This document shows, piece by piece, positions 12,633 to 64,000 of a stretch of 64,000 bases of DNA (within the stretch, counting starts at the first letter, position 1; every line of letters begins with the position of its first letter). This DNA is from an uncultured Hormoscilla sp. (lineage in GTDB: Bacteria; Cyanobacteriota; Cyanobacteriia; Cyanobacteriales; Desertifilaceae): positions 2,112,001 through 2,176,000 of the forward strand of contig OZ001293.3 of the NCBI GenBank assembly GCA_963921275.4, read 5' to 3'. The translations under genes and the position numbers were made by a program. The notes under the pieces were generated by a model, which made no database searches, had not been told where the DNA came from, and saw nothing but the letters and a program-made list of their open reading frames with translations.

Positions 12633-14947
12633 CTAAGTTTGCCAGATCAGGTAGGCGGACCACACCCCAGCCGCAAAAGCCACAATGGTCAGCCAGATGG
12701 GTAGATAACTGTGACTGGTTCTGTTCGGGCTGGTGCCTAGGGTTTCCAGGTCGAGCCAGACAATGGCCCCCCGGCGCAACCAGCCCGTTGCGATGACTGA
12801 TTGACCGATTAAATCCCGGGGACGGAGTCCACTACCATCCCATAAATCCCCAATGGGACCCAGGGGGGAGATGTAGTGTAACTTCACTAAACCACTGCCC
12901 GTTTGCAGATAAAAATCCTGTCCTAACCCGTTACTGAGGCCGCGACGCCCCAATAGTTTGCCTTGTAAGCAGCAGGTTTTGCTATCTGCCGGTAGGGCTT
13001 GGCTATTGGCGATCGCCTCGGTTAAATTCACTTCGGTTAAAGCGGTGCGTCGTTTGACATTTGGGAAATAGCGATTGAGCAGTATCAAGATGTTGATGTT
13101 GAAACTAATCAGCAGGCAAGCGGCCATCAGGTCGCCTCTTTGATCTTGAGACAGCCACACTAAATTACCAATATACATGAAATAGGCTATTTTTCCAATT
13201 AGCCACAGAAAAATTCTGAATCCTAGACCCAGCACTAAGCTAATTATCAGGGCCGTTTGCAGCAGGGGCAAGCCTTGTAGCTGTTCAATAGTAATGATAC
13301 AGCCATATCAATGGTATCCCTGATGTACGATCGCTTCGTTCGCGTAGCATGCGCGCAGCGCATTCTTTTCCGCTCTGGCGCGATCGCCGGTAAATCCAGT
13401 TCTGTTTCTAGACCCCAGTAGCGGGCGTAGTGAGCGAGTCGTTGCAGTCTTACTCCCATCAGGGGATGTCCGGTACCCCACGTCAACCACCGACTGTAAG
13501 GATTAAGGATATCCCACGACCAATTAGCATAAGCTTGCCAGTTACAGATAGCCTGACTATACCCTACAGGCTTGAGTAAATCAAAACTTTCTGTTAAAAA
13601 GCTGGTTGACTTGGTTTTCTGGATATCATCAGTAATGCCGCGAGCAATTTTCAGCAAGGCGCGGGTAAGAGCATTGGGGTTGCCCGTCGTTGCCACAGAG
13701 CCAGCGTCGCTATAAAGTAGCCGCTGCCGCGACAACCACAGCAGGGGCAAGCGCAGTAGCCAATAGTAGCCGTAACTGAGATTAGCCACCAGTGCCGCTA
13801 CCGTTCGGAATAAAGATTCTAGCAATGGTCTGTCTATTCGGTCTGAGGCATACTCTCCCCATTTTCCCACTTGCCAATAGAGGATGTAAGGAATTTGCAG
13901 TACCAATACCCCTACGGACATGACCATAAAATCCCAGTTGACGATTTGCGCTAACTGTGCTGCATAGATAGTGGCAATTTCGTCATCTCCTAGTTGCTCC
14001 AATAGTCCCTCACTAACTACAATCCGGGCAGTCATCGATAAATTTCCGTATGTAATTGCCACGGGTGTGGATGTGGGTAAAATGCCTAACTGGGGCACTC
14101 TCATTCGTCGCTGACGGCAAAATCTTTGCATCACTTTGGCTGCATCTGGACTGCGATCGCGCAGCTGGGCGTGAGTCATTGGTTTGAGACCATGAAAGAA
14201 TCTCAGCAGCCCATCCATTAACCAAGGAGACAAGACTAGCATGATTGCCAAGGTGAGAAAGACCAACTGGGTGGGATCGCGATCGAACGAGTCAATGGGT
14301 CGCAACAACGGCAGTAAGGCTAAGATTTTGTTAATTGTAACCTCAGCGAATCTGAGTATAGCACGACTCCACCAAAAGAAGGCGATCGCAGTTACCCCCT
14401 GTAGCACCCACAGCAACCTGATATCAGAGACCAAACCTGGCCCGACAGGCAATGGTCCCCACTGCTTTGCCCTTGGTGCCTGACGCCACTCACGATCTTC
14501 TACTATCTTCCTAGTTGGTTCTGCAGTTGGAGCCTGGGTTAAGGCTGCTGGCTTAGGAGCCAAGGGCGCAAAACCGGTGGGATCTCCGGATAAAGGAACG
14601 AAACCTGTGGGGTCTGTTACTGGGGTTGATGGTAACGCAGTGGGATGCTGACGTGCGCGTAGCGTGCGCGCAGCGCATTCGCTCAAATCCGCTAGAGTTT
14701 TTACAGCCCAGTTTTTCACTTTCCGATTACTGCTTTGGCGGAGGAGCTGACAGAGGGCGATCGCCTTTTCGGGCTGACCTGTGTCACGATAAGCCAATAC
14801 CAGACCTGTCTGGGCTTTGGTGAGGGTTTTATCGTCCAGTTCCAACTCGCTGACAGCTGCTAGGTGGGCGATCGCGTTTTGATAATCTGATTGCTTGAGG
14901 GCGGCTAAACCCGCCTCTAGAGATGGGTTGTCCGGGATAGATGTCAT
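12633..14947 (-). pseudogene. TPR plus M48/HtpX-like membrane peptidase, frameshifted near 13270
   Basis: ARIVVSEGLLEQLGDDEIATIY, GNPNALTRALLKI, GHPLMGVRL; ORFs 13247-14947 and 12633-13271 join by a 1-nt indel; the HExxH position reads AQLAQ. Confidence 0.75.
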
Positions 14948-22239: not shown

Positions 22240-24713
22240 ATGTCTACGGAACTGGAAACGGAATTACAAACAGAAGTCGATCGCAGGCGCAATTTTGCGA
22301 TAATTTCTCACCCGGACGCGGGGAAGACCACCCTGACAGAAAAGCTGCTACTTTATGGAGGTGCGATCCACGAGGCGGGGGCGGTGAAGGCGAGGGCCCA
22401 ACAGCGCCGCGCTACTTCTGACTGGATGGCGATGGAACAACAACGGGGTATTTCGATCACTTCGACGGTGTTGCAGTTGTGCGATTCGTTCTAGTCTAAC
22501 GTAGTCAAATACGGAACACTAGGCCAGGTCCAAACTGGTAACTCTGGTATTCATGGGGGTTAAATTCCCTCTCCCCAGGTACGGGGGTAACACCGGTCCT
22601 TAGTGCTATAGAGTCACATCGCTGTGGTGCGAAGCAAGGACTTAAATGTAGGATAGCTGGCAGCCTAAGCCAGTGACGCCGCTAGGAAAGATGCTCAAGG
22701 TTAGAGCAGGCAAACCTGTGTAAACTTCGTTACACCGAACCAGCGGAATAAGGCTTATACGCTGGCCCAAAAGGGAAATGGTAGTTAGTGCTGGTAGTAT
22801 CTGCTTGCCAGCATCGTGCTCAAAGAACTCCCGGAGGAAAGCAGGAACCTAAAAGCATCGCGAAATGATACCAGGGAACGAAGTAACCTCTCGTGTGCTG
22901 TCCTCATTTGGACTAGTTAGATGTAAAGCGTAAGCCACGGGGGGAGAGATAGCCCGAGAAGCTAATGCCTAGGGTAATGCCTATGGATACGTTGAGGAAT
23001 AGGTAAGGATGCCTCAACATGCAGACGCGGGTTGGTGAAAGTAGGAAATCTTGGGCAAAAGTATCTCTAACAAGCCCCAATACCTCGCGTAGCTGAGGTG
23101 GGATGACTGGTAAAACAGACTTGAAAATGGTAATACTAAAGGTTATCTGGCAGCGCCACTTACCAACCAGGAAAGGGGAGAAATCACACGAGATGAGGGA
23201 CAACGGGAGTAATCCCCAGTAATCCTAGCAATGACAAGGCCCTACTTCCCAGTAGCCGGATGCGGTGAAAGTCGCATGTCCGGTTCCGAATGGGAGGGTT
23301 GGGGGGTGACCCCCAGTTCGACCCCTAATTGCTTATCTTAACTGTCAGATTAATCTCCTGGATACTCCCGGTCACCAGGATTTTAGTGAAGATACTTATC
23401 GAACTCTGGCGGCGGCGGATAATGCGGTGATGCTGGAGGATGCTGCTAAGGGTTTGGAACCTCAGACTCGCAAGCTGTTTGAAGTTTGCCGCATGCGCAA
23501 AATCCAGATTTTTACTTTCTTTAATAAGCTCGATCGCCCTACCCGCGAACCCCTGGAACTCCTGGATGAAATCGAGCAGGAACTGGGTCTGCAAACTTAC
23601 CCGACTAATTGGCCGATCGGGACGGGCGATCGCTTTAAGGGGGTGTTCGATCGCCGTCGGAGGCAAATCCACTTATTTGAGCGCAACCCCCACGGTAGGC
23701 GGGAAGCTAAAGATACGGTAGTGGATTTGGGGGATCCCCGCGTGGAGGATTTGTTAGAGCAAGACCTCTATTACCAACTGAAAGAGGATTTAGAACTCTT
23801 GGAAGGGTTGGGGGCAGAATTTGACTTGGAGGCCATCCATGCAGGTCAAATGACTCCCGTTTTCTGGGGTAGCGCTATGACTAATTTCGGGGTCCGGCTT
23901 TTCCTGGATGCTTTCCTGGAATATGCTCTCAAACCCGGCGATCGCAAGAGTAGCGCGGGGATGATGCCACCCAGTTATCCTGAGTTTACGGGTTTTGTGT
24001 TTAAGCTGCAAGCGAATATGGACCCGAAACATCGCGATCGGGTAGCGTTTGTGCGGGTTTGTACGGGCAAGTTTGAGAAGGACATGACGGTCAATCATGC
24101 CCGCACTGGCAAGACGGTGCGTCTCTCCCGACCGCAGAAATTGTTTGCCCAGGACCGGGAATCTGTAGAGGTAGCTTATCCCGGGGATGTGATCGGTTTG
24201 AATAATCCGGGGGTGTTTGCCATTGGGGACAGTATCTACACCGGGAAGAGGATAGAGTACGAAGGGATTCCCTGTTTTTCTCCGGAACTGTTTGCTTACT
24301 TGAAAAATCCCAATCCTTCTAAGTTCAAGCGATTTCACAAAGGGATTTCCGAATTGCGAGAGGAAGGGGCCGTACAAATTATGTATTCGGCGGATGAATC
24401 TAAGCGCGACCCCATTCTGGCGGCGGTGGGACAATTGCAATTTGAAGTGGTGCAGTTCCGGATGCGGAGCGAGTATGGGGTGGAAACTTTGCTGGATATG
24501 TTACCCTATTCTGTTGCTCGTTGGGTTGTTGGTGGTTGGGATGCTTTAGAAAAGGTCGGGCGTTTGTTTAATACCGTTACGGTAAAAGATAACTGGGAAC
24601 GTCCGGTATTGTTGTTTAAGAATCAGTGGAATTTGGACCAGATCCAATCAGAATATAAGGATTTGCTTCTGAATGCGATCGCCCCTGTGGTGTCGGGTCA
24701 GGAACCTACATAG
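22240..24713 (+). CDS. prfC: Peptide chain release factor 3, two exons (22240-22478 + 23330-24713), 540 aa after splicing
   Basis: [57 protein letters not shown]; the F codon is split TT|T. Confidence 0.95.
22479..23329 (+). mobile_element. ORF-less group II intron (851 nt), sense orientation in prfC
   Basis: 5' GTGCGATTCG; domain V AGCCGGATGCGGTGAAAGTCGCATGTCCGGTTC at ~23254-23286; DVI hairpin ending CGACCCCTAAT; EBS2 ACACCG complements exon CGGTGT. Confidence 0.95.
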
Positions 24714-38137: not shown

Positions 38138-38497
38138 ATGTCAAGAGTAAAACGGGGCAATGTAGCACGCAAGCGCCGCAAAAAAATTCTCAAACTGGCA
38201 AAAGGATTTCGTGGATCTCACTCAAAACTTTTCCGCACCGCAAATCAAAGGGTGATGAAAGCCTTGCGCAATGCTTATCGCGATCGCCGGAAGCGGAAGC
38301 GTGATTTCCGTCGCCTGTGGATCGTGCGGGTAAACGCAGCAGCGCGGAACCATGGCATGAGTTACAGCCAGATGATGGGTAACCTGAAGAAAGCGGATAT
38401 CCAGCTGAACCGCAAGATGCTAGCTCAAATGGCGATTCTGGATCCAGCTAGCTTTGCTAAAGTGGTGGAAGTAGCAGCCCAAGCAAAAGCATCCTAA
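38138..38497 (+). CDS. rplT: 50S ribosomal protein L20
   Basis: [39 protein letters not shown]. Confidence 0.97.
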
Positions 38498-38560: not shown

Positions 38561-38615
38561 CGGCGTCTTCCGCGTGCTCTTGTCCTGAAGGACGCGGCAC
38601 ACTCCAGACACCGCC
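38561..38615 (-). repeat. 55-bp palindromic repeat (intergenic copy of the element inside dnaX)
   Basis: Reverse complement GGCGGTGTCTGGAGTGTGCCGCGTCCTTCAGGACAAGAGCACGCGGAAGACGCCG matches 60096-60174 minus a 24-bp insert. Confidence 0.85.
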
Positions 38616-43839: not shown

Positions 43840-44098
43840 TCCCACCAGTGGGGCGGTCTCTGGTGAAGGGTGTATCTCACTTTTGCTATGCGCTGCGCGC
43901 ACGCTGCGCGATGCGGGCATATTCACCGGTAACCCAGAAACCTGGTTTTTCCAAAAAACCAGGTTTCTTAATTCAAAATAGAGACCACCTAAACTCTGGT
44001 GAAGGCCAAATGGGAAATCGGAAATAATGATTAAACCCATTGGCGCTTTTAGAGTTTAGGTGGTCTCTTAGAACTAGAAACAACAGCAGGAACTGGAC

Positions 44099-46332: not shown

Positions 46333-46528
46333 AATTATTCTGGAGACGATCTAGCGGATGAACGGAAAACTATAAACTCATCGTTCATCCTTCATCATTA
46401 ATCTCGATGTTAAGTTTCCCAAAAATAATTATCCGATGGCGCTGCACGCGCTACGCGAATGCGCTGCGCGCACGCTACGCGAATGCAATTTGAGGTAAAC
46501 TCTAGTAAATCCGCGTCCAGTAGCTACT

Positions 46529-47454: not shown

Positions 47455-47648
47455 AGAATGCGCTGCGCGCACGCTACGCGATCGAGAATAATTGAATTTT
47501 AAATTCCTTAACCGGTTCGGTCATTAAGGTGTTGCGATCGCCTGAGGATCCTGGCGATCGTAACTGTCATAATAGACCACAGCTGATTTGGATTTCCGCT
47601 TTTCCCAGTTGGCAATTTACAATTGGGGCCGAATGCGCTGCGCGCACG

Positions 47649-48213
<565 letters not shown>

Positions 48214-56191: not shown

Positions 56192-56905
56192 ATGAACAAC
56201 ATGCTACAAATTTCTGGGTTAAATGTATACTATGGTGAGAGCCACATTCTCCGAGAAGTGGATTTGCACCTCCCTGCTGGACAAATGGTTTGCCTAATTG
56301 GACGTAATGGTGTGGGCAAAACTACTCTCCTGAAGACAATTATGGGATTGCTCAAACCCCGCACGGGTACAATAACATTAACGGGAGAGTCGATCGCCTC
56401 TTTATCACCCGATCGACGGGCGCGTCGGGGGATAGGTTACGTTCCCCAAGGACGGGAAATAATCCCTCGGTTAACAGTGAAGGAAAACTTGTTGCTGGGT
56501 TTAGAGGCCCGTCCAGGTGGGATAAAAAAGGCCGATCAGGCAATTCCCCAGGAGATATTGGAGTTATTTCCAGTCTTAGAAACAATGCTGTCGCGCCTGG
56601 GGGGGGATCTGAGTGGCGGACAACAGCAACAATTGGCGATCGCCCGGGCCTTAATGGGGCGTCCGCAGCTACTCTTATTAGACGAACCCACAGAAGGCAT
56701 ACAACCTTCAATCATATTAGAAATAGAGGCAGCAGTGAGCCGCATCATTGCTGCCACAGGCATTTCCGTCTTATTAGTAGAACAACACCTGCACTTTGTC
56801 CGGCAAGCAGATTGGTACTATGCTATGCAAAAGGGAGGTATTGTCGCTTCTGGCTCGACCGATGAACTCAGCAACAATGTGATTCAAAGATTTCTCGCAG
56901 TGTAA
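56192..56905 (+). CDS. urtE: Urea ABC transporter ATP-binding subunit UrtE
   Basis: YYGESHILR, GRNGVGKTT, YVPQGREI, LSGGQQQQLAIARAL, DEPTEGIQPSII. Confidence 0.88.
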   Translation: MNNMLQISGLNVYYGESHILREVDLHLPAGQMVCLIGRNGVGKTTLLKTIMGLLKPRTGTITLTGESIASLSPDRRARRGIGYVPQGREIIPRLTVKENLLLGLEARPGGIKKADQAIPQEILELFPVLETMLSRLGGDLSGGQQQQLAIARALMGRPQLLLLDEPTEGIQPSIILEIEAAVSRIIAATGISVLLVEQHLHFVRQADWYYAMQKGGIVASGSTDELSNNVIQRFLAV

Positions 56906-58467: not shown

Positions 58468-60426
58468 ATGAATTACGAACCCCTGCACCAGAAGTATCGC
58501 CCCCAGACTTTCGCCCAACTGGTGGGACAAGAGGCGATCGCCACCACCTTAAGCAACGCCCTGCGCACCAACCGGATCGCCCCCGCCTACCTATTTGCCG
58601 GTCCCCGAGGCACTGGCAAAACCTCCAGCGCCCGCATTCTCGCGAAATCTCTCAACTGTTTGAGCAGCAATGGACCTACCGATACCCCTTGCGGCGAATG
58701 TCAGATGTGCCAATCAATTATCAAAGGCACATCTCTAGACGTAATCGAAATTGACGCCGCTAGCAACACTGGGGTTGATAATATCCGAGAACTGATCGAA
58801 AAAGCACAATTCGCCCCAGTCCAAGGTCGCTACAAAGTATACACAATAGACGAAACCCATATGCTTAGCGTATCCGCATTCAACGCGATGCTCAAGACAT
58901 TAGAAGAACCCCCAGAACGAGTAGTCTTTGTGCTAGCAACAACTGACCCTCAAAGAGTTTTGCCTACCATCATCTCTCGCTGTCAGCGATTTTATTTTCG
59001 TCGCATTCCTTTAGCAGCAATGGTAAAGCATTTGAGGCACATTGCCGAGGGAGAAAACATCGCCATTACTGATGAAGCTATTACCCTAGCTGCCCAAATT
59101 TCCCAAGGGGGACTGCGGGATGCCGAAAGTTTACTCGATCAACTCAGCTTACAGCCCGGTGAGGTGAGGCCAGAACATGTCTGGGATTTGGTGGGTTCGG
59201 TGCCAGAACGGGATTTGCTTGCCCTGATAAGCGCGATCGCATCTGACGATAACCTGAGTTTACTCGCACAATGCCGATCGATCGTCGAGCGCGGCAAGGA
59301 ACCGGCGATCGTCCTGCAAAACATCGCCAGTTTCTACCGAGATTTACTAATTGCCAAAACTGCACCCCAGCGGAGTGATTTAGTGGCGATGACTCCCCCC
59401 ACTTGGGAGGCATTATGTAAGTTAGCTGACAAGTTTTCCCCATCAATTATTTTAGCAGGACAAAAGCACCTCAAAGATAGTGAATATCAAATCAAACACA
59501 CTACCCAACCCAGTTTATGGTTAGAAGTGACCCTGTTGGGTTTGTTGCCATCAGCCCTCACTCAACAGCCTGATCGCAATAGCAAAAAGGTTTCTCAGGC
59601 TGCAAATAAAACTATAACATCTTCACAGCCAGAAAAAACAGATCGCAGTTCTCCACCCGTAGGAAAACCTCCCCAAAGTGTGATCGCCTCTGCAGCTTCT
59701 GAGAACAAATCTCCTGCTGCACCAACAGCAAATCCGGTGGCGGAACCTAGGGCTAAAGTTGAACCGATGGAGATGCCTGAGTCAGTTGAATACGAGCAAA
59801 TTTGGCAACAGGCAATTAAGGAGATCGAAGTGAACAGCACTCGCACGATGCTAATTCAACACGGACAGCTACTGGCAATTGAGAGTTCTACTGTTATAGT
59901 TAGCATCAGATCAAAGCCCTTGCTGGATATGGTTAAGAATTCTTTACCCAAAGTGGAAACTGCCTTTTCCACAGTTCTCCAGCGCCCCGTCAAGGTAAAT
60001 TTAGTAGTAGCATCAGCCCAGCAGTCTCAACCTGCTGCTGTTAAACAGCCGCCATCCCCCACAAACACCCGTCCGACAACAGAAACAAACCAGCCGGCGG
60101 TGTCCGGAGCGTGCCGATCGCGTAGCGTGCGCGCAGCGCATGTCCTTCAGGACAAGAGCACGCTCCAGACGCCGGACGCAGCCAACTCGGAAAAGGCGAT
60201 CATTACCAAAGAATCTGCCAGGATGCAAGCCCTCCGCCAGGAGAAAAAGGCTGTGACGGAAGCTGCTGAAAGCTTGGCTACATCTTTCGGCGGAGAGTTG
60301 ATATCCTTGTCCTCAGAGTTCCTCAACCAAACCCCCGTCGAGAGAACCCATCCCAAAGCTACCGACCAGCAGCAACCCGATCGGGTTGCAGAAGAGGATG
60401 ATGAAGAAGATGAGATCCCCTTCTAA
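58468..60426 (+). CDS. dnaX: DNA polymerase III subunit gamma/tau
   Basis: KYRPQTF, GPRGTGKTS, EIDAASN, LKTLEEPP, SRCQ, C-terminal EIPF. Confidence 0.96.
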   Translation: MNYEPLHQKYRPQTFAQLVGQEAIATTLSNALRTNRIAPAYLFAGPRGTGKTSSARILAKSLNCLSSNGPTDTPCGECQMCQSIIKGTSLDVIEIDAASNTGVDNIRELIEKAQFAPVQGRYKVYTIDETHMLSVSAFNAMLKTLEEPPERVVFVLATTDPQRVLPTIISRCQRFYFRRIPLAAMVKHLRHIAEGENIAITDEAITLAAQISQGGLRDAESLLDQLSLQPGEVRPEHVWDLVGSVPERDLLALISAIASDDNLSLLAQCRSIVERGKEPAIVLQNIASFYRDLLIAKTAPQRSDLVAMTPPTWEALCKLADKFSPSIILAGQKHLKDSEYQIKHTTQPSLWLEVTLLGLLPSALTQQPDRNSKKVSQAANKTITSSQPEKTDRSSPPVGKPPQSVIASAASENKSPAAPTANPVAEPRAKVEPMEMPESVEYEQIWQQAIKEIEVNSTRTMLIQHGQLLAIESSTVIVSIRSKPLLDMVKNSLPKVETAFSTVLQRPVKVNLVVASAQQSQPAAVKQPPSPTNTRPTTETNQPAVSGACRSRSVRAAHVLQDKSTLQTPDAANSEKAIITKESARMQALRQEKKAVTEAAESLATSFGGELISLSSEFLNQTPVERTHPKATDQQQPDRVAEEDDEEDEIPF

Positions 60427-61030: not shown

Positions 61031-61222
61031 GGCCCAAGGCCAAAAAGTAAAAAACTGCCAGTCCGATAGAGTTAACCCCTTTTCTTCCTATTCTCAACCC
61101 CGATCGCGTAGCGTGCGCGCAGCGCATTCGATGGAAATTACCTGAATTTTTGGTTGTTGCTTTTTAACAACTCACCCGCTCTAGGCGATCCGGGAGGCGC
61201 GCTCTTCGCTGTTAATGCTGCT

Positions 61223-62518: not shown

Positions 62519-64000
62519 ATGAAGCATAAATCTTTTACCAACACCATCGTAGTAGTGGATGCCTCCCTAGAAAACTACCAGCAGCTTATAGACGGCATCC
62601 GGCCTGGGGCCAAATCTTTCCTCTTAGATCTTCGGTCCGATGGCATCAAACAGATCGGCGAACTTCTCCGACAGCATAAAGAAACAGAGGTTCTGCACCT
62701 ACTTTCCCACGGCAGCCCTGGCTGTCTGTATCTGGGAAACTCCCAACTGAGTTTGGATGGGGTCGAGCCGGGAATCGCTTCCCGACCCTCCCTTGAGGAA
62801 CCGGACTTGCGATTTTCACCGCATCCGGCTACTGGGTACTAGGCCCTTTTCATAGGTAGACTTAATAGGAATTACTTCCGTTAGCCCTTGCCGCCTGTCT
62901 TTTCTTCCCTTTCCTGGTTTAGCGAGTGGTTGTTCTGATAACCGTTAGTATCACCATTTTCAAGTCAGTTTTACCAGTTATCCATACCTTATCCTCCACT
63001 TGCGTTTCGGATTAGTTCCGTGGCTTTTTAGGATTACTCATTCCAGCAGCTTCCTAGTATCACCGACCCACGTCAGCGCTGGCTACCCAGCATCATCTAC
63101 ATTACTGTAGATGTTATCCCAGGAATTACCCCGGGCATTCGCTTCTTGGGCCATCCCTCCCCCCGTGGCTTGCGCTTAACATCTAACTTGTCCTGATGGA
63201 CAGCACACGAGAGGTTACTTCGTTCCCTAACAACATTTCGCGATACCTTTAGGTCCACACTATACCCCGGGAGCTATTTGAGTACTATATTAGCCAGAGT
63301 CTAAAACTAATACTAGCTACCATTTCCTTTTTAGGCCAGCGCATATAGCCTTATTTCGCTGGTTCCTTATAACGAGGCTTGCACATGTTTGCCTGCTCTA
63401 ACCTTGGATATCTTTCCTAGCGGCGTCACCGGCTTAGGCTGCCAGTTATCCTACATTTGAGTCCTCGCTTAGCACCACGATGATGTCGCTTCGTAGCACC
63501 GAGGACCGGTGTCACCCCCGTACCTGGGGGGAGGGGAATTTAACCCCCATGCGGTCAGAGTTCCCGGCTAATGAAACCGGGCTAGCGTTCCGTGTTTGAC
63601 CACGTTAGGCTAGAACGAATCGCACAGATCCTCTAGGAGATTACGCCTCTACCCTGCAGAAGTGGAAGGTAAAACAACTCCTACTCTACGGCTGTAACGT
63701 CGCCGCCGGAGATGCAGGAGAGGAGTTGATGACTAAGCTACAGGCCCTGACCGGGGCATCCCTCGCCGCCTCTACTACCCGGACAGGGGCAGCAGCCCGG
63801 GGCGGAAATTGGAAGTTGGAGTGGCGAACTCCGGGGATGAAAACTCCCTTAGCATTGTCCGCAGAAGCTCAGATGGCCTATGGGGGCATATTGATCTCCC
63901 AGCAGGAGTATCAGGCCTTAAGGGCTCTCTATCAAAGCACCAATGGGGCTTCTTGGATTAACAATACAGGCTGGCGGGACTGGAATTTCAACAGCCTAAC
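62519..64000 (+). pseudogene. DUF4347-domain surface protein with probable LRR N-cap, interrupted by an antisense group II intron; runs off the window
   Basis: IVVVDASL..DGIKQI..LHLLSHGSPGCLYLG..QLSL|DPL..LLYGCNVAAG..GGNWKLE..ALRALYQSTNGASWINNTGW. Confidence 0.85.
62755..63625 (-). mobile_element. ORF-less group II intron (871 nt), antisense to its host gene
   Basis: Minus-strand 5' GTGCGATTCGTTCTAG; domain V AGCCGGATGCGGTGAAAATCGCAAGTCCGGTTC; collinear with the prfC intron; removal restores AGT TT|A GAT CCT. Confidence 0.93.

Follow-up and report, generated by a model that had tools for sequence, protein, structure and literature searches.

Among the short repeats described in cyanobacteria, those closest to the element treated here are the small dispersed repeats (SDRs) SDR1-8, reportedly described by Elhai et al. 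in 2008 from Nostoc punctiforme and its relatives, with units of 21-27 nucleotides (nt). SDRs are said to be found within heptamer tandem repeats, and SDR4/5/6 reportedly share a predicted secondary structure backed by compensatory changes. A second point of reference, from an unrelated lineage, is the Rickettsia palindromic elements (RPEs), which Ogata et al. in 2000 are said to have described as selfish elements of about 100-150 nt that lie in frame in protein genes, including essential ones, and add peptide; we know of no RPE with nested 24-nt cassettes or with a HIP1-type target. One paper places the entry of SDR5 into HIP1 between the third and fourth base of GCGATCGC (PMC4390886), another describes SDR5 as a 21-nt repeat that a few heterocystous cyanobacteria carry in association with HIP1 (PMC13756078), and a third reports finding none of the SDR-like repeats beyond Nostocaceae (PMC5861425). 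Here, we analyse a 64,000-nt stretch of DNA from an uncultured Hormoscilla sp. (G000:C1:2112001-2176000, hereafter the window), which lies on a 6.88-Mb contig of a 7.03-Mb genome and in which dnaX, the gene for the tau/gamma subunits of DNA polymerase III, carries a 24-nt repeat (the 24-mer, TCGCGTAGCGTGCGCGCAGCGCAT) nested in the loop of a 54-nt hairpin repeat. We propose, with a probability of roughly 80%, that the 24-mer is a dispersed repeat of the SDR kind which is gained as a fixed unit by copying, that it sits here in a hairpin specific to the clade, and that the dnaX site was filled stepwise. The features on which the argument turns are as follows.

58468..60426, plus strand: dnaX (DNA polymerase III tau/gamma), an intact open frame of 652 amino acids
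60093..60170, plus strand: 78-nt composite of the 54-nt hairpin repeat and the 24-mer, 26 codons, as delimited by the contig of run X5
60096..60117, plus strand: left arm of the hairpin repeat, GGCGGTGTCCGGAGCGTGCCGA, pairing with 60156-60175 in the predicted fold
60118..60141, plus strand: the 24-mer, TCGCGTAGCGTGCGCGCAGCGCAT, exactly dnaX codons 551-558, peptide SRSVRAAH
60142..60175, plus strand: mini-hairpin GTCCTTCAGGAC and right arm of the hairpin repeat
38561..38615, minus strand: empty hairpin paralog, intergenic, between rplT and a solute-binding protein gene

A preliminary description of this DNA had reported a 24-base unit nested in a palindrome within dnaX (60094-60175, plus strand), together with an intergenic copy (38561-38615, minus strand) lacking exactly those 24 bases, and both sites read as it said. 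Indeed, pairwise alignment of the two copies opens one clean gap of exactly 24 columns, and the 44 hairpin bases compared differ at three positions, including the junction base (A in the dnaX copy, C in the intergenic one); GCCGA|GTCC, the bar marking the junction, is the form taken by most of the genome's other empty copies. Both layers keep the dnaX frame and add peptide to the tau linker, as had been claimed, leaving a 652-residue product whose acidic C-terminal tail is the same in protein alignment as that of its orthologs. The clamp-loader domains are all present according to Pfam (DNA_pol3_delta2 at residues 21-179, the ATPase lid at 186-225 and gamma3 domain III at 235-373), and the composite lies in the linker that follows the last Pfam domain, DnaA_N-like_STI (residues 438-512), and precedes the conserved C-terminal part. 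The expected insertion of about 27 residues has to be corrected to 26 (78 nt).

Comparison with the four closest DnaX relatives, all from Hormoscilla sp. genomes (best-segment identity 78-89%), shows that this site exists in several states. The element is absent from one genome; two relatives hold the hairpin alone, eight codons shorter than in the window and with a variant left arm; and one relative carries the hairpin with a different 24-mer at the same junction, encoding SRQRGASR, whereas the window holds the hairpin with TCGCGTAGCGTGCGCGCAGCGCAT. All four states found in the genus are in frame in the C-terminal linker, and the inserted peptide varies even among congeners, contrary to the sharing of the peptide by unrelated genera that the preliminary description had named as grounds for rejection. 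DnaX homologs from other genera (L005, L006) could be aligned only over residues 1-364 and 1-403, which leaves the linker uncovered. A 3352-nt contig from a sponge metagenome (run X5) joins 60092 to 60171, skipping exactly 78 nt, and is a clean empty site for the composite; its allele is 26 codons shorter and differs from the window at 42 letters over the 392 nt upstream. Five letters (GCCGG) fit both sides of this junction, so the boundaries of the composite can be shifted rightward by up to 5 nt. The earlier statement that there is no target duplication is correct for the 24-mer. No piece spanning the dnaX site was present among the contig pieces listed for runs X1, X3 and X6. As a separate observation on these proteins, three DnaX homologs (L003, L005, L006) have an intein-like insertion of about 170-200 residues (C...HNC) after the Walker B DE motif, which is absent from the dnaX of the window and from three close relatives.

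To see how the unit behaves elsewhere, five 20-kb regions of the genome were aligned to the four congeners and all 31 copies within them examined. A spanning ortholog (at least 75% identity) was found for 16 of these copies and was absent for the other 15. Twelve of these 16 sites are shorter by exactly 24 nt in one relative or more, and a further one by 25 nt; the remaining three comprise a site filled identically in three relatives, one at which the relatives have other, longer inserts (43888) and one with a difference of 39 nt. The 12 exact sites include one pair of paralogs. The empty sites read CGATC in 8 of the 12 cases, a few of them within the full HIP1 octamer GCGATCGC, and CGA followed by other bases in three; the 25-nt site reads CGC. 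Entry is at CG|A or CGA|, with an ambiguity of 1-5 nt. Six of the 12 sites are 24 nt shorter in every relative that can be aligned, which, together with the 215 copies in this genome against 5-76 in its congeners (counted as described below), favours gain as the polarity. A reciprocal case was also detected, in which G001 is filled and the window is empty.

An independent set of empty sites comes from within the genome, where 70 of 228 copies have an empty paralog. For paralogs reading GCGA|ACC and CACCAA|AACC, the only possible boundaries are those of the 24 nt, with no duplication, which fixes the limits of the unit. In a group II intron context the net gain is 26 nt, CGT having been brought along with the unit and one A lost. 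Insertion of the 24-mer as a discrete unit is thus supported by three independent lines, namely the dnaX alleles, the shorter orthologs at 13 of 16 sites and the empty paralogs. The copies and the empty site within the window are listed below.

61104..61127, plus strand: 24-mer, exact; relatives have an empty orthologous site, CGATCG
43888..43911, minus strand: 24-mer, one mismatch; three relatives have other, longer nested inserts at the same site
46459..46482, minus strand: 24-mer, exact; no spanning ortholog found in congeners
47458..47481, minus strand: 24-mer, exact; no spanning ortholog found in congeners
47633..47656, minus strand: 24-mer, exact; no spanning ortholog found in congeners
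13340..13363, plus strand: 24-mer, one mismatch
14655..14678, plus strand: 24-mer, one mismatch
56530..56549, minus strand: empty site, ..CTGA|TCGG..; filled with the 24-mer in G001

Across the 7.03-Mb genome, TCGCGTAGCGTGCGCGCAGCGCAT occurs 51 times without a mismatch and 228 times when up to four mismatches are allowed; a limit of three mismatches leaves 220 non-overlapping copies, spread over 153 different flank contexts, and some of these copies are carried inside larger repeats (groups of 19, 14 and 11). A greedy assembly of the commonest 16-mers, made blind to the finding, returned exactly TCGCGTAGCGTGCGCGCAGCGCAT at 180x and extended no further. Counted across genomes with a 23-base pattern at up to two mismatches, the repeat has 215 copies in the genome of the window, 5, 66, 76 and 75 in the four congeners and 0 or 1 in nine other genomes of the family, while the reversed pattern used as control gave no match in any genome counted. 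Of 401 genomes chosen evenly across the phylum, 23 contain the repeat at up to three mismatches; all 23 belong to the same order, and never more than 22 copies were found in a genome outside the genus. Five of the sampled genomes carry the same or a near-identical 24-mer after CGT, often inside heptamer tandem repeats. The sequence family is thus old and widespread at low copy number, with a burst in this genus.

Open frames of at least 150 amino acids contain 78 of the 153 contexts, against 60% of 2000 random 24-nt windows, and the copies within them occupy all six reading frames and both orientations. Their distribution, 51 antisense against 27 sense, is predicted by the single frame of the unit that holds a TAG (p = 0.36 against 0.6). 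Head-to-tail arrays with a period of 24 also occur, of three units at G000:C1:6191353-6191424 and of four at G004:C7:90018-90112; such arrays would be expected were the left junction to restore the CGA|TCG target.

The flanks of the 153 contexts define a short target. To the left of the unit, C occupies -3 in 93% and G occupies -2 in 88%, while -1 is split between A (50%) and T (46%); to the right, T predominates at +1 (75%), C at +2 (82%) and G at +3 (52%). The first base of the unit is linked to the base that precedes it: of the contexts in which the unit starts with C, 33 have A or T at -1, and in 32 of these it is T (Fisher p = 1.4e-11); one additional context of this kind has C at -1. Since this linkage is accompanied by a change of the empty-site A to T in several orthologous pairs, the copied stretch must exceed the net 24 nt and overlap the target. 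By inference, we favour as mechanism templated copying from a donor, anchored by short homology (CGW ... TCG), rather than cut-and-paste transposition, because the preceding base is inherited together with the first base and because one non-HIP1 target received CGT along with the unit. Such copying might be gene-conversion-like, or might proceed via an RNA copied by a reverse transcriptase. Sister units of 23, 24 and 27 nt in the same genome have the CGA/CGT left flank in common with the 24-mer.

The hairpin that encloses the 24-mer in dnaX is itself a dispersed repeat. Its right arm, GTCCTTCAGGACAAGAG..., has 131 matches with up to five mismatches in the genome, and a degenerate pattern for the whole repeat (up to two mismatches) finds 110 copies in G000 and 52, 44 and 65 in three congeners; no copy was found in G001 or in any of 26 genomes from other genera. 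Across 37 distinct empty copies the stem shows compensatory changes: the pair 14-40 is AT in 19 and GC in 16, 16-38 is GC in 27 and AT in 8, and 15-39 is TA in 32 and CG in 4. Among these copies, G:T cells of the stem outnumber A:C cells by 46 to 5, an excess which argues that the hairpin fold is selected on one strand. The intergenic copy folds at -30.7 kcal/mol on its minus strand, the one favoured by G:T, and at -21.9 kcal/mol on the opposite strand. At one orthologous position (L043, in G003; ortholog of L037:3405), the whole hairpin repeat lies in a HIP1 site where G000 has the 24-mer in GCGATCGC, indicating that the hairpin repeat also targets HIP1.

The loop of this hairpin presents a junction, between GCCG(A) and GTCC, whose occupancy was read at 111 right arms (up to three mismatches).

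Empty: 47
With 1 nt: 2
With 24 nt: 10, of which 4 are TCGCGTAGCGTGCGCGCAGCGCAT, 4 are TCGCGGCAGCGCGGCGCCAGCCGT and 2 are of a third kind
With 27 nt: 7
With 30 nt: 2
With 48 nt, two tandem units: 2
With nested hairpin halves: 10
Without a left arm of canonical form within 70 nt: 31, among them fully palindromic variants that enter the count once per strand

The four hairpins filled with TCGCGTAGCGTGCGCGCAGCGCAT have differing stem variants, and each of these variants was also found empty, which argues that the 24-mer has entered the loop site repeatedly. The longer loop inserts (24, 27, 30 and 48 nt) are all multiples of three, and the hairpin is 54 nt. An Rfam scan of the whole window matched no family at either site, detecting only one tRNA and two group II intron domains. 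A search of PLSDB with a 34-nt junction query gave weak, mostly non-cyanobacterial matches (best E = 0.02), none of them convincing for a cyanobacterium, and no link to named Nostoc plasmids.

The 24-mer and the hairpin are both genuine mini-elements that have spread recently. Discreteness of the unit, its target, the polarity of gain, nesting, preservation of the frame and lineage-specific expansion are all seen directly in these comparisons. In our proposed explanation, the 24-mer would be added right after CG(A/T), most commonly within the HIP1 core CGATCG; the process would be of the copy-and-paste kind, each addition lengthening the DNA by a net 24 bases without duplicating the target. 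The loop of the 54-base hairpin, itself dispersed and self-nesting, would offer the same CGA| junction. At dnaX, the hairpin (54 nt, in frame) would first have landed in the unstructured C-terminal linker of tau; its loop site would then have been filled by different 24-base cassettes in different lineages; and both layers would have been tolerated, each being a multiple of three, free of stops here and placed between domains.

Several observations weigh against this proposal. No single precise cut-and-insert rule fits the junctions, which are not uniform: the bases bracketing a 23-nt core occur in all four A/T combinations, and the A-to-T change at empty CGATC sites, noted above, concerns the subfamily whose first base is C. 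No replication-strand bias was detected (73 versus 80 contexts), in a test of low power given the weak GC skew, and the 24-mer alone folds at -8.9 kcal/mol, no better than shuffled sequences (z = 0.42). No enzyme or RNA intermediate was identified for the 24-mer, and the comparison with SDRs is indirect, being drawn from published descriptions of them. At dnaX itself, the exact precursor of the window allele is not seen among the orthologs: over the 12 bases on the left side of the junction, the hairpin-only orthologs and the window disagree at 6, the right arm in the window has a three-base block change, TCC for GGA, relative to all three hairpin-bearing orthologs, and its left arm differs from the same three by one T-to-C change. 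The history of this locus must therefore include replacement or conversion of the hairpin, and not one simple 24-base insertion.

These arm differences are also what speaks for the strongest rival, a possible but less favoured history in which the dnaX hairpin was replaced by one that was already filled, through gene conversion or re-insertion, instead of being filled in situ; the dnaX locus alone would then be no witness to insertion of the 24-mer. Three other hairpins in the genome also carry the same 24-mer, one of them with the TCC arm as well. However, the four filled hairpins are of different stem variants, each matched by empty copies, so that the 24-mer would have entered this loop site several times, and the allele with the other 24-mer at the same dnaX junction has ordinary arms. 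Replacement would alter the history of one locus and not the nature of the element.

Our proposal of copying into a CGA target could also be extended. On this bolder reading, which we consider unlikely, the genus has active machinery aimed at the HIP1 core that pastes or swaps donor cassettes of 24 to 30 bases at CGA|TC; it is suggested by the sharing of sites between differing cassettes (dnaX, 43888), by the preceding base that travels with the unit and by insert lengths that are multiples of three. If it were true, HIP1 would serve, at least in part, as the landing site for micro-insertions copied from a template, which would rewrite proteins in steps of eight residues, and the copy gradient (5, about 70, 215) would let comparative genomics find the gene responsible.

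A functional explanation, in which hairpin and cassette are kept for their own sake, as a regulatory or terminator hairpin in RNA or as a useful tau peptide, appears improbable. The compensatory stem changes and the strand-asymmetric G:T pairing do indicate selection on a single-stranded fold, and the intergenic copy lies directly after the rpmI-rplT genes, the Ribosomal_L20 gene rplT ending at 38497. However, selection on the fold is equally expected if spreading needs the fold, a transcript running past rplT would carry the weaker-folding strand of the hairpin, and neither site matches an Rfam family. The insertion is moreover absent or different in close relatives whose dnaX is intact, and copies occur in all six frames and in both orientations.

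We regard the converse polarity as very improbable. Here the ancestor would already have had the 24 bases, and they would have been deleted precisely at the sites that are now empty, for instance through recombination between short repeats at HIP1-like sites. At CGATCG targets a direct repeat of 3-5 nt (TCG or ATCG) does bound the unit, and slippage could delete it there. Nevertheless, repeat-free targets (GCGA|ACC, CACCAA|AACC, GCCGA|GTCC) are filled equally precisely, and many independent precise deletions would be needed, given that 6 of 12 sites are short throughout and that just one site is common to three relatives. The climb in copy number across the genus, from 5 through 66-76 to 215, likewise points to gain, and the preliminary description, which had named better-fitting deletion as grounds for rejection, is upheld on this point. 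Finally, although the short-read contigs of runs X1 and X3 break at 60130-60141 and no listed piece spans the stretch, a collapsed or chimerically placed repeat is scarcely credible for a window on a 6.88-Mb contig, with a hairpin at the same codon position in four other assemblies and the dnaX reading frame exactly kept.

The 24-mer is one of several short repeats in this genome. Several further families, with units of 19-27 nt, are present at 80-180 copies each; one of them, TCGCGCAGCGTGGCGCAGCCATG, reaches 131-135. The commonest 16-mers also assemble into a long element of about 270 copies whose intron-like context carries some of the 24-mers. The group II intron domains recognised by Rfam in the window lie at 23251-23329 (plus strand) and 62757-62833 (minus strand). 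One contig of the assembly, C3 (31,420 nt), has 17.6% G+C against 42-49% in the other six, and may be foreign or organellar DNA.

Elements as small as the 24-mer cannot encode anything, and the dnaX site offers a natural series in one essential gene, from empty through hairpin only to hairpin with either of two cassettes, in a genus that spans a 40-fold range of 24-mer copy number. With about half of the insertions in reading frames, segments of eight residues have been added to many proteins, and the dnaX insertion is one in-frame case among many. In practical terms, such insertions inflate linkers, break short-read assemblies and can mislead ortholog alignments.

Several known systems share single traits with these repeats. 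REP sequences and REPINs are short, dispersed, hairpin-forming repeats mobilised by RAYT (Y1) transposases (Bertels and Rainey 2011, PMC3116915). The 54-nt repeat resembles them in being dispersed and hairpin-forming, with compensatory stem changes, and the genome has Y1 genes. A REP/RAYT assignment was rejected: no 24-mer and no 54-nt hairpin comes closer than 3 kb to either Y1 match, Y1 genes occur in all five genomes of the genus, including G001, which has no 54-nt hairpin, and the 24-mer is no palindrome and has about half of its contexts in open frames, hence not extragenic. A REP/RAYT-like arrangement does occur elsewhere in the genome, where an intact Y1 gene of the IS200/RAYT type (G000:C1:241396-242139) is preceded by two copies of another hairpin repeat, with the core AGCCCGCCTGCGCGGGCT, of which there are 87 copies with up to three mismatches.

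Insertion of the IS200/IS605 type occurs 3' of a short target and without duplication. The 24-mer likewise lands 3' of a short fixed word (CGA/CGT) with no duplication; it differs from these elements, and from miniature inverted-repeat transposable elements (MITEs), in the missing replication-strand bias (73 versus 80, with weak GC skew). Like MITEs, among which PMC3733652 names Nezha, the 24-mer is a small non-autonomous repeat. As a class for the 24-mer, MITEs were rejected, as it has neither terminal inverted repeats nor a target duplication and is too short for end hairpins that bind a transposase. The 54-nt hairpin does have inverted arms, and at dnaX the 5-nt GCCGG fits both of its sides. 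With the RPEs, the dnaX insertion shares a palindromic repeat placed in frame in an essential gene and the addition of a peptide segment.

The likeness to SDRs extends to more traits. The unit falls in the 21-27 nt range and has hundreds of dispersed copies, its mobility is shown by precise pairs of filled and empty sites, one of them reciprocal, and it nests in other small repeats, namely the hairpin loop here and heptamer repeats in other cyanobacterial families. Precise insertion inside HIP1 is shared with SDR5 as described in PMC4390886. There are also differences: the host is a non-heterocystous, Hormoscilla-type cyanobacterium outside Nostocaceae, the target needs just the CGA(TC) core and not the full octamer, the unit has 24 nt against the 21 nt given for SDR5 in PMC13756078, and the 24-mer alone has no above-chance fold (-8.9 kcal/mol), whereas its host hairpin does show compensatory changes. 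Repeats of the SDR type would thereby be extended beyond Nostocaceae and tied once again to the HIP1 core. On this comparison, the SDR-kind repeat appears to be new in the Hormoscilla lineage, and its behaviour matches a kind known from Nostoc.

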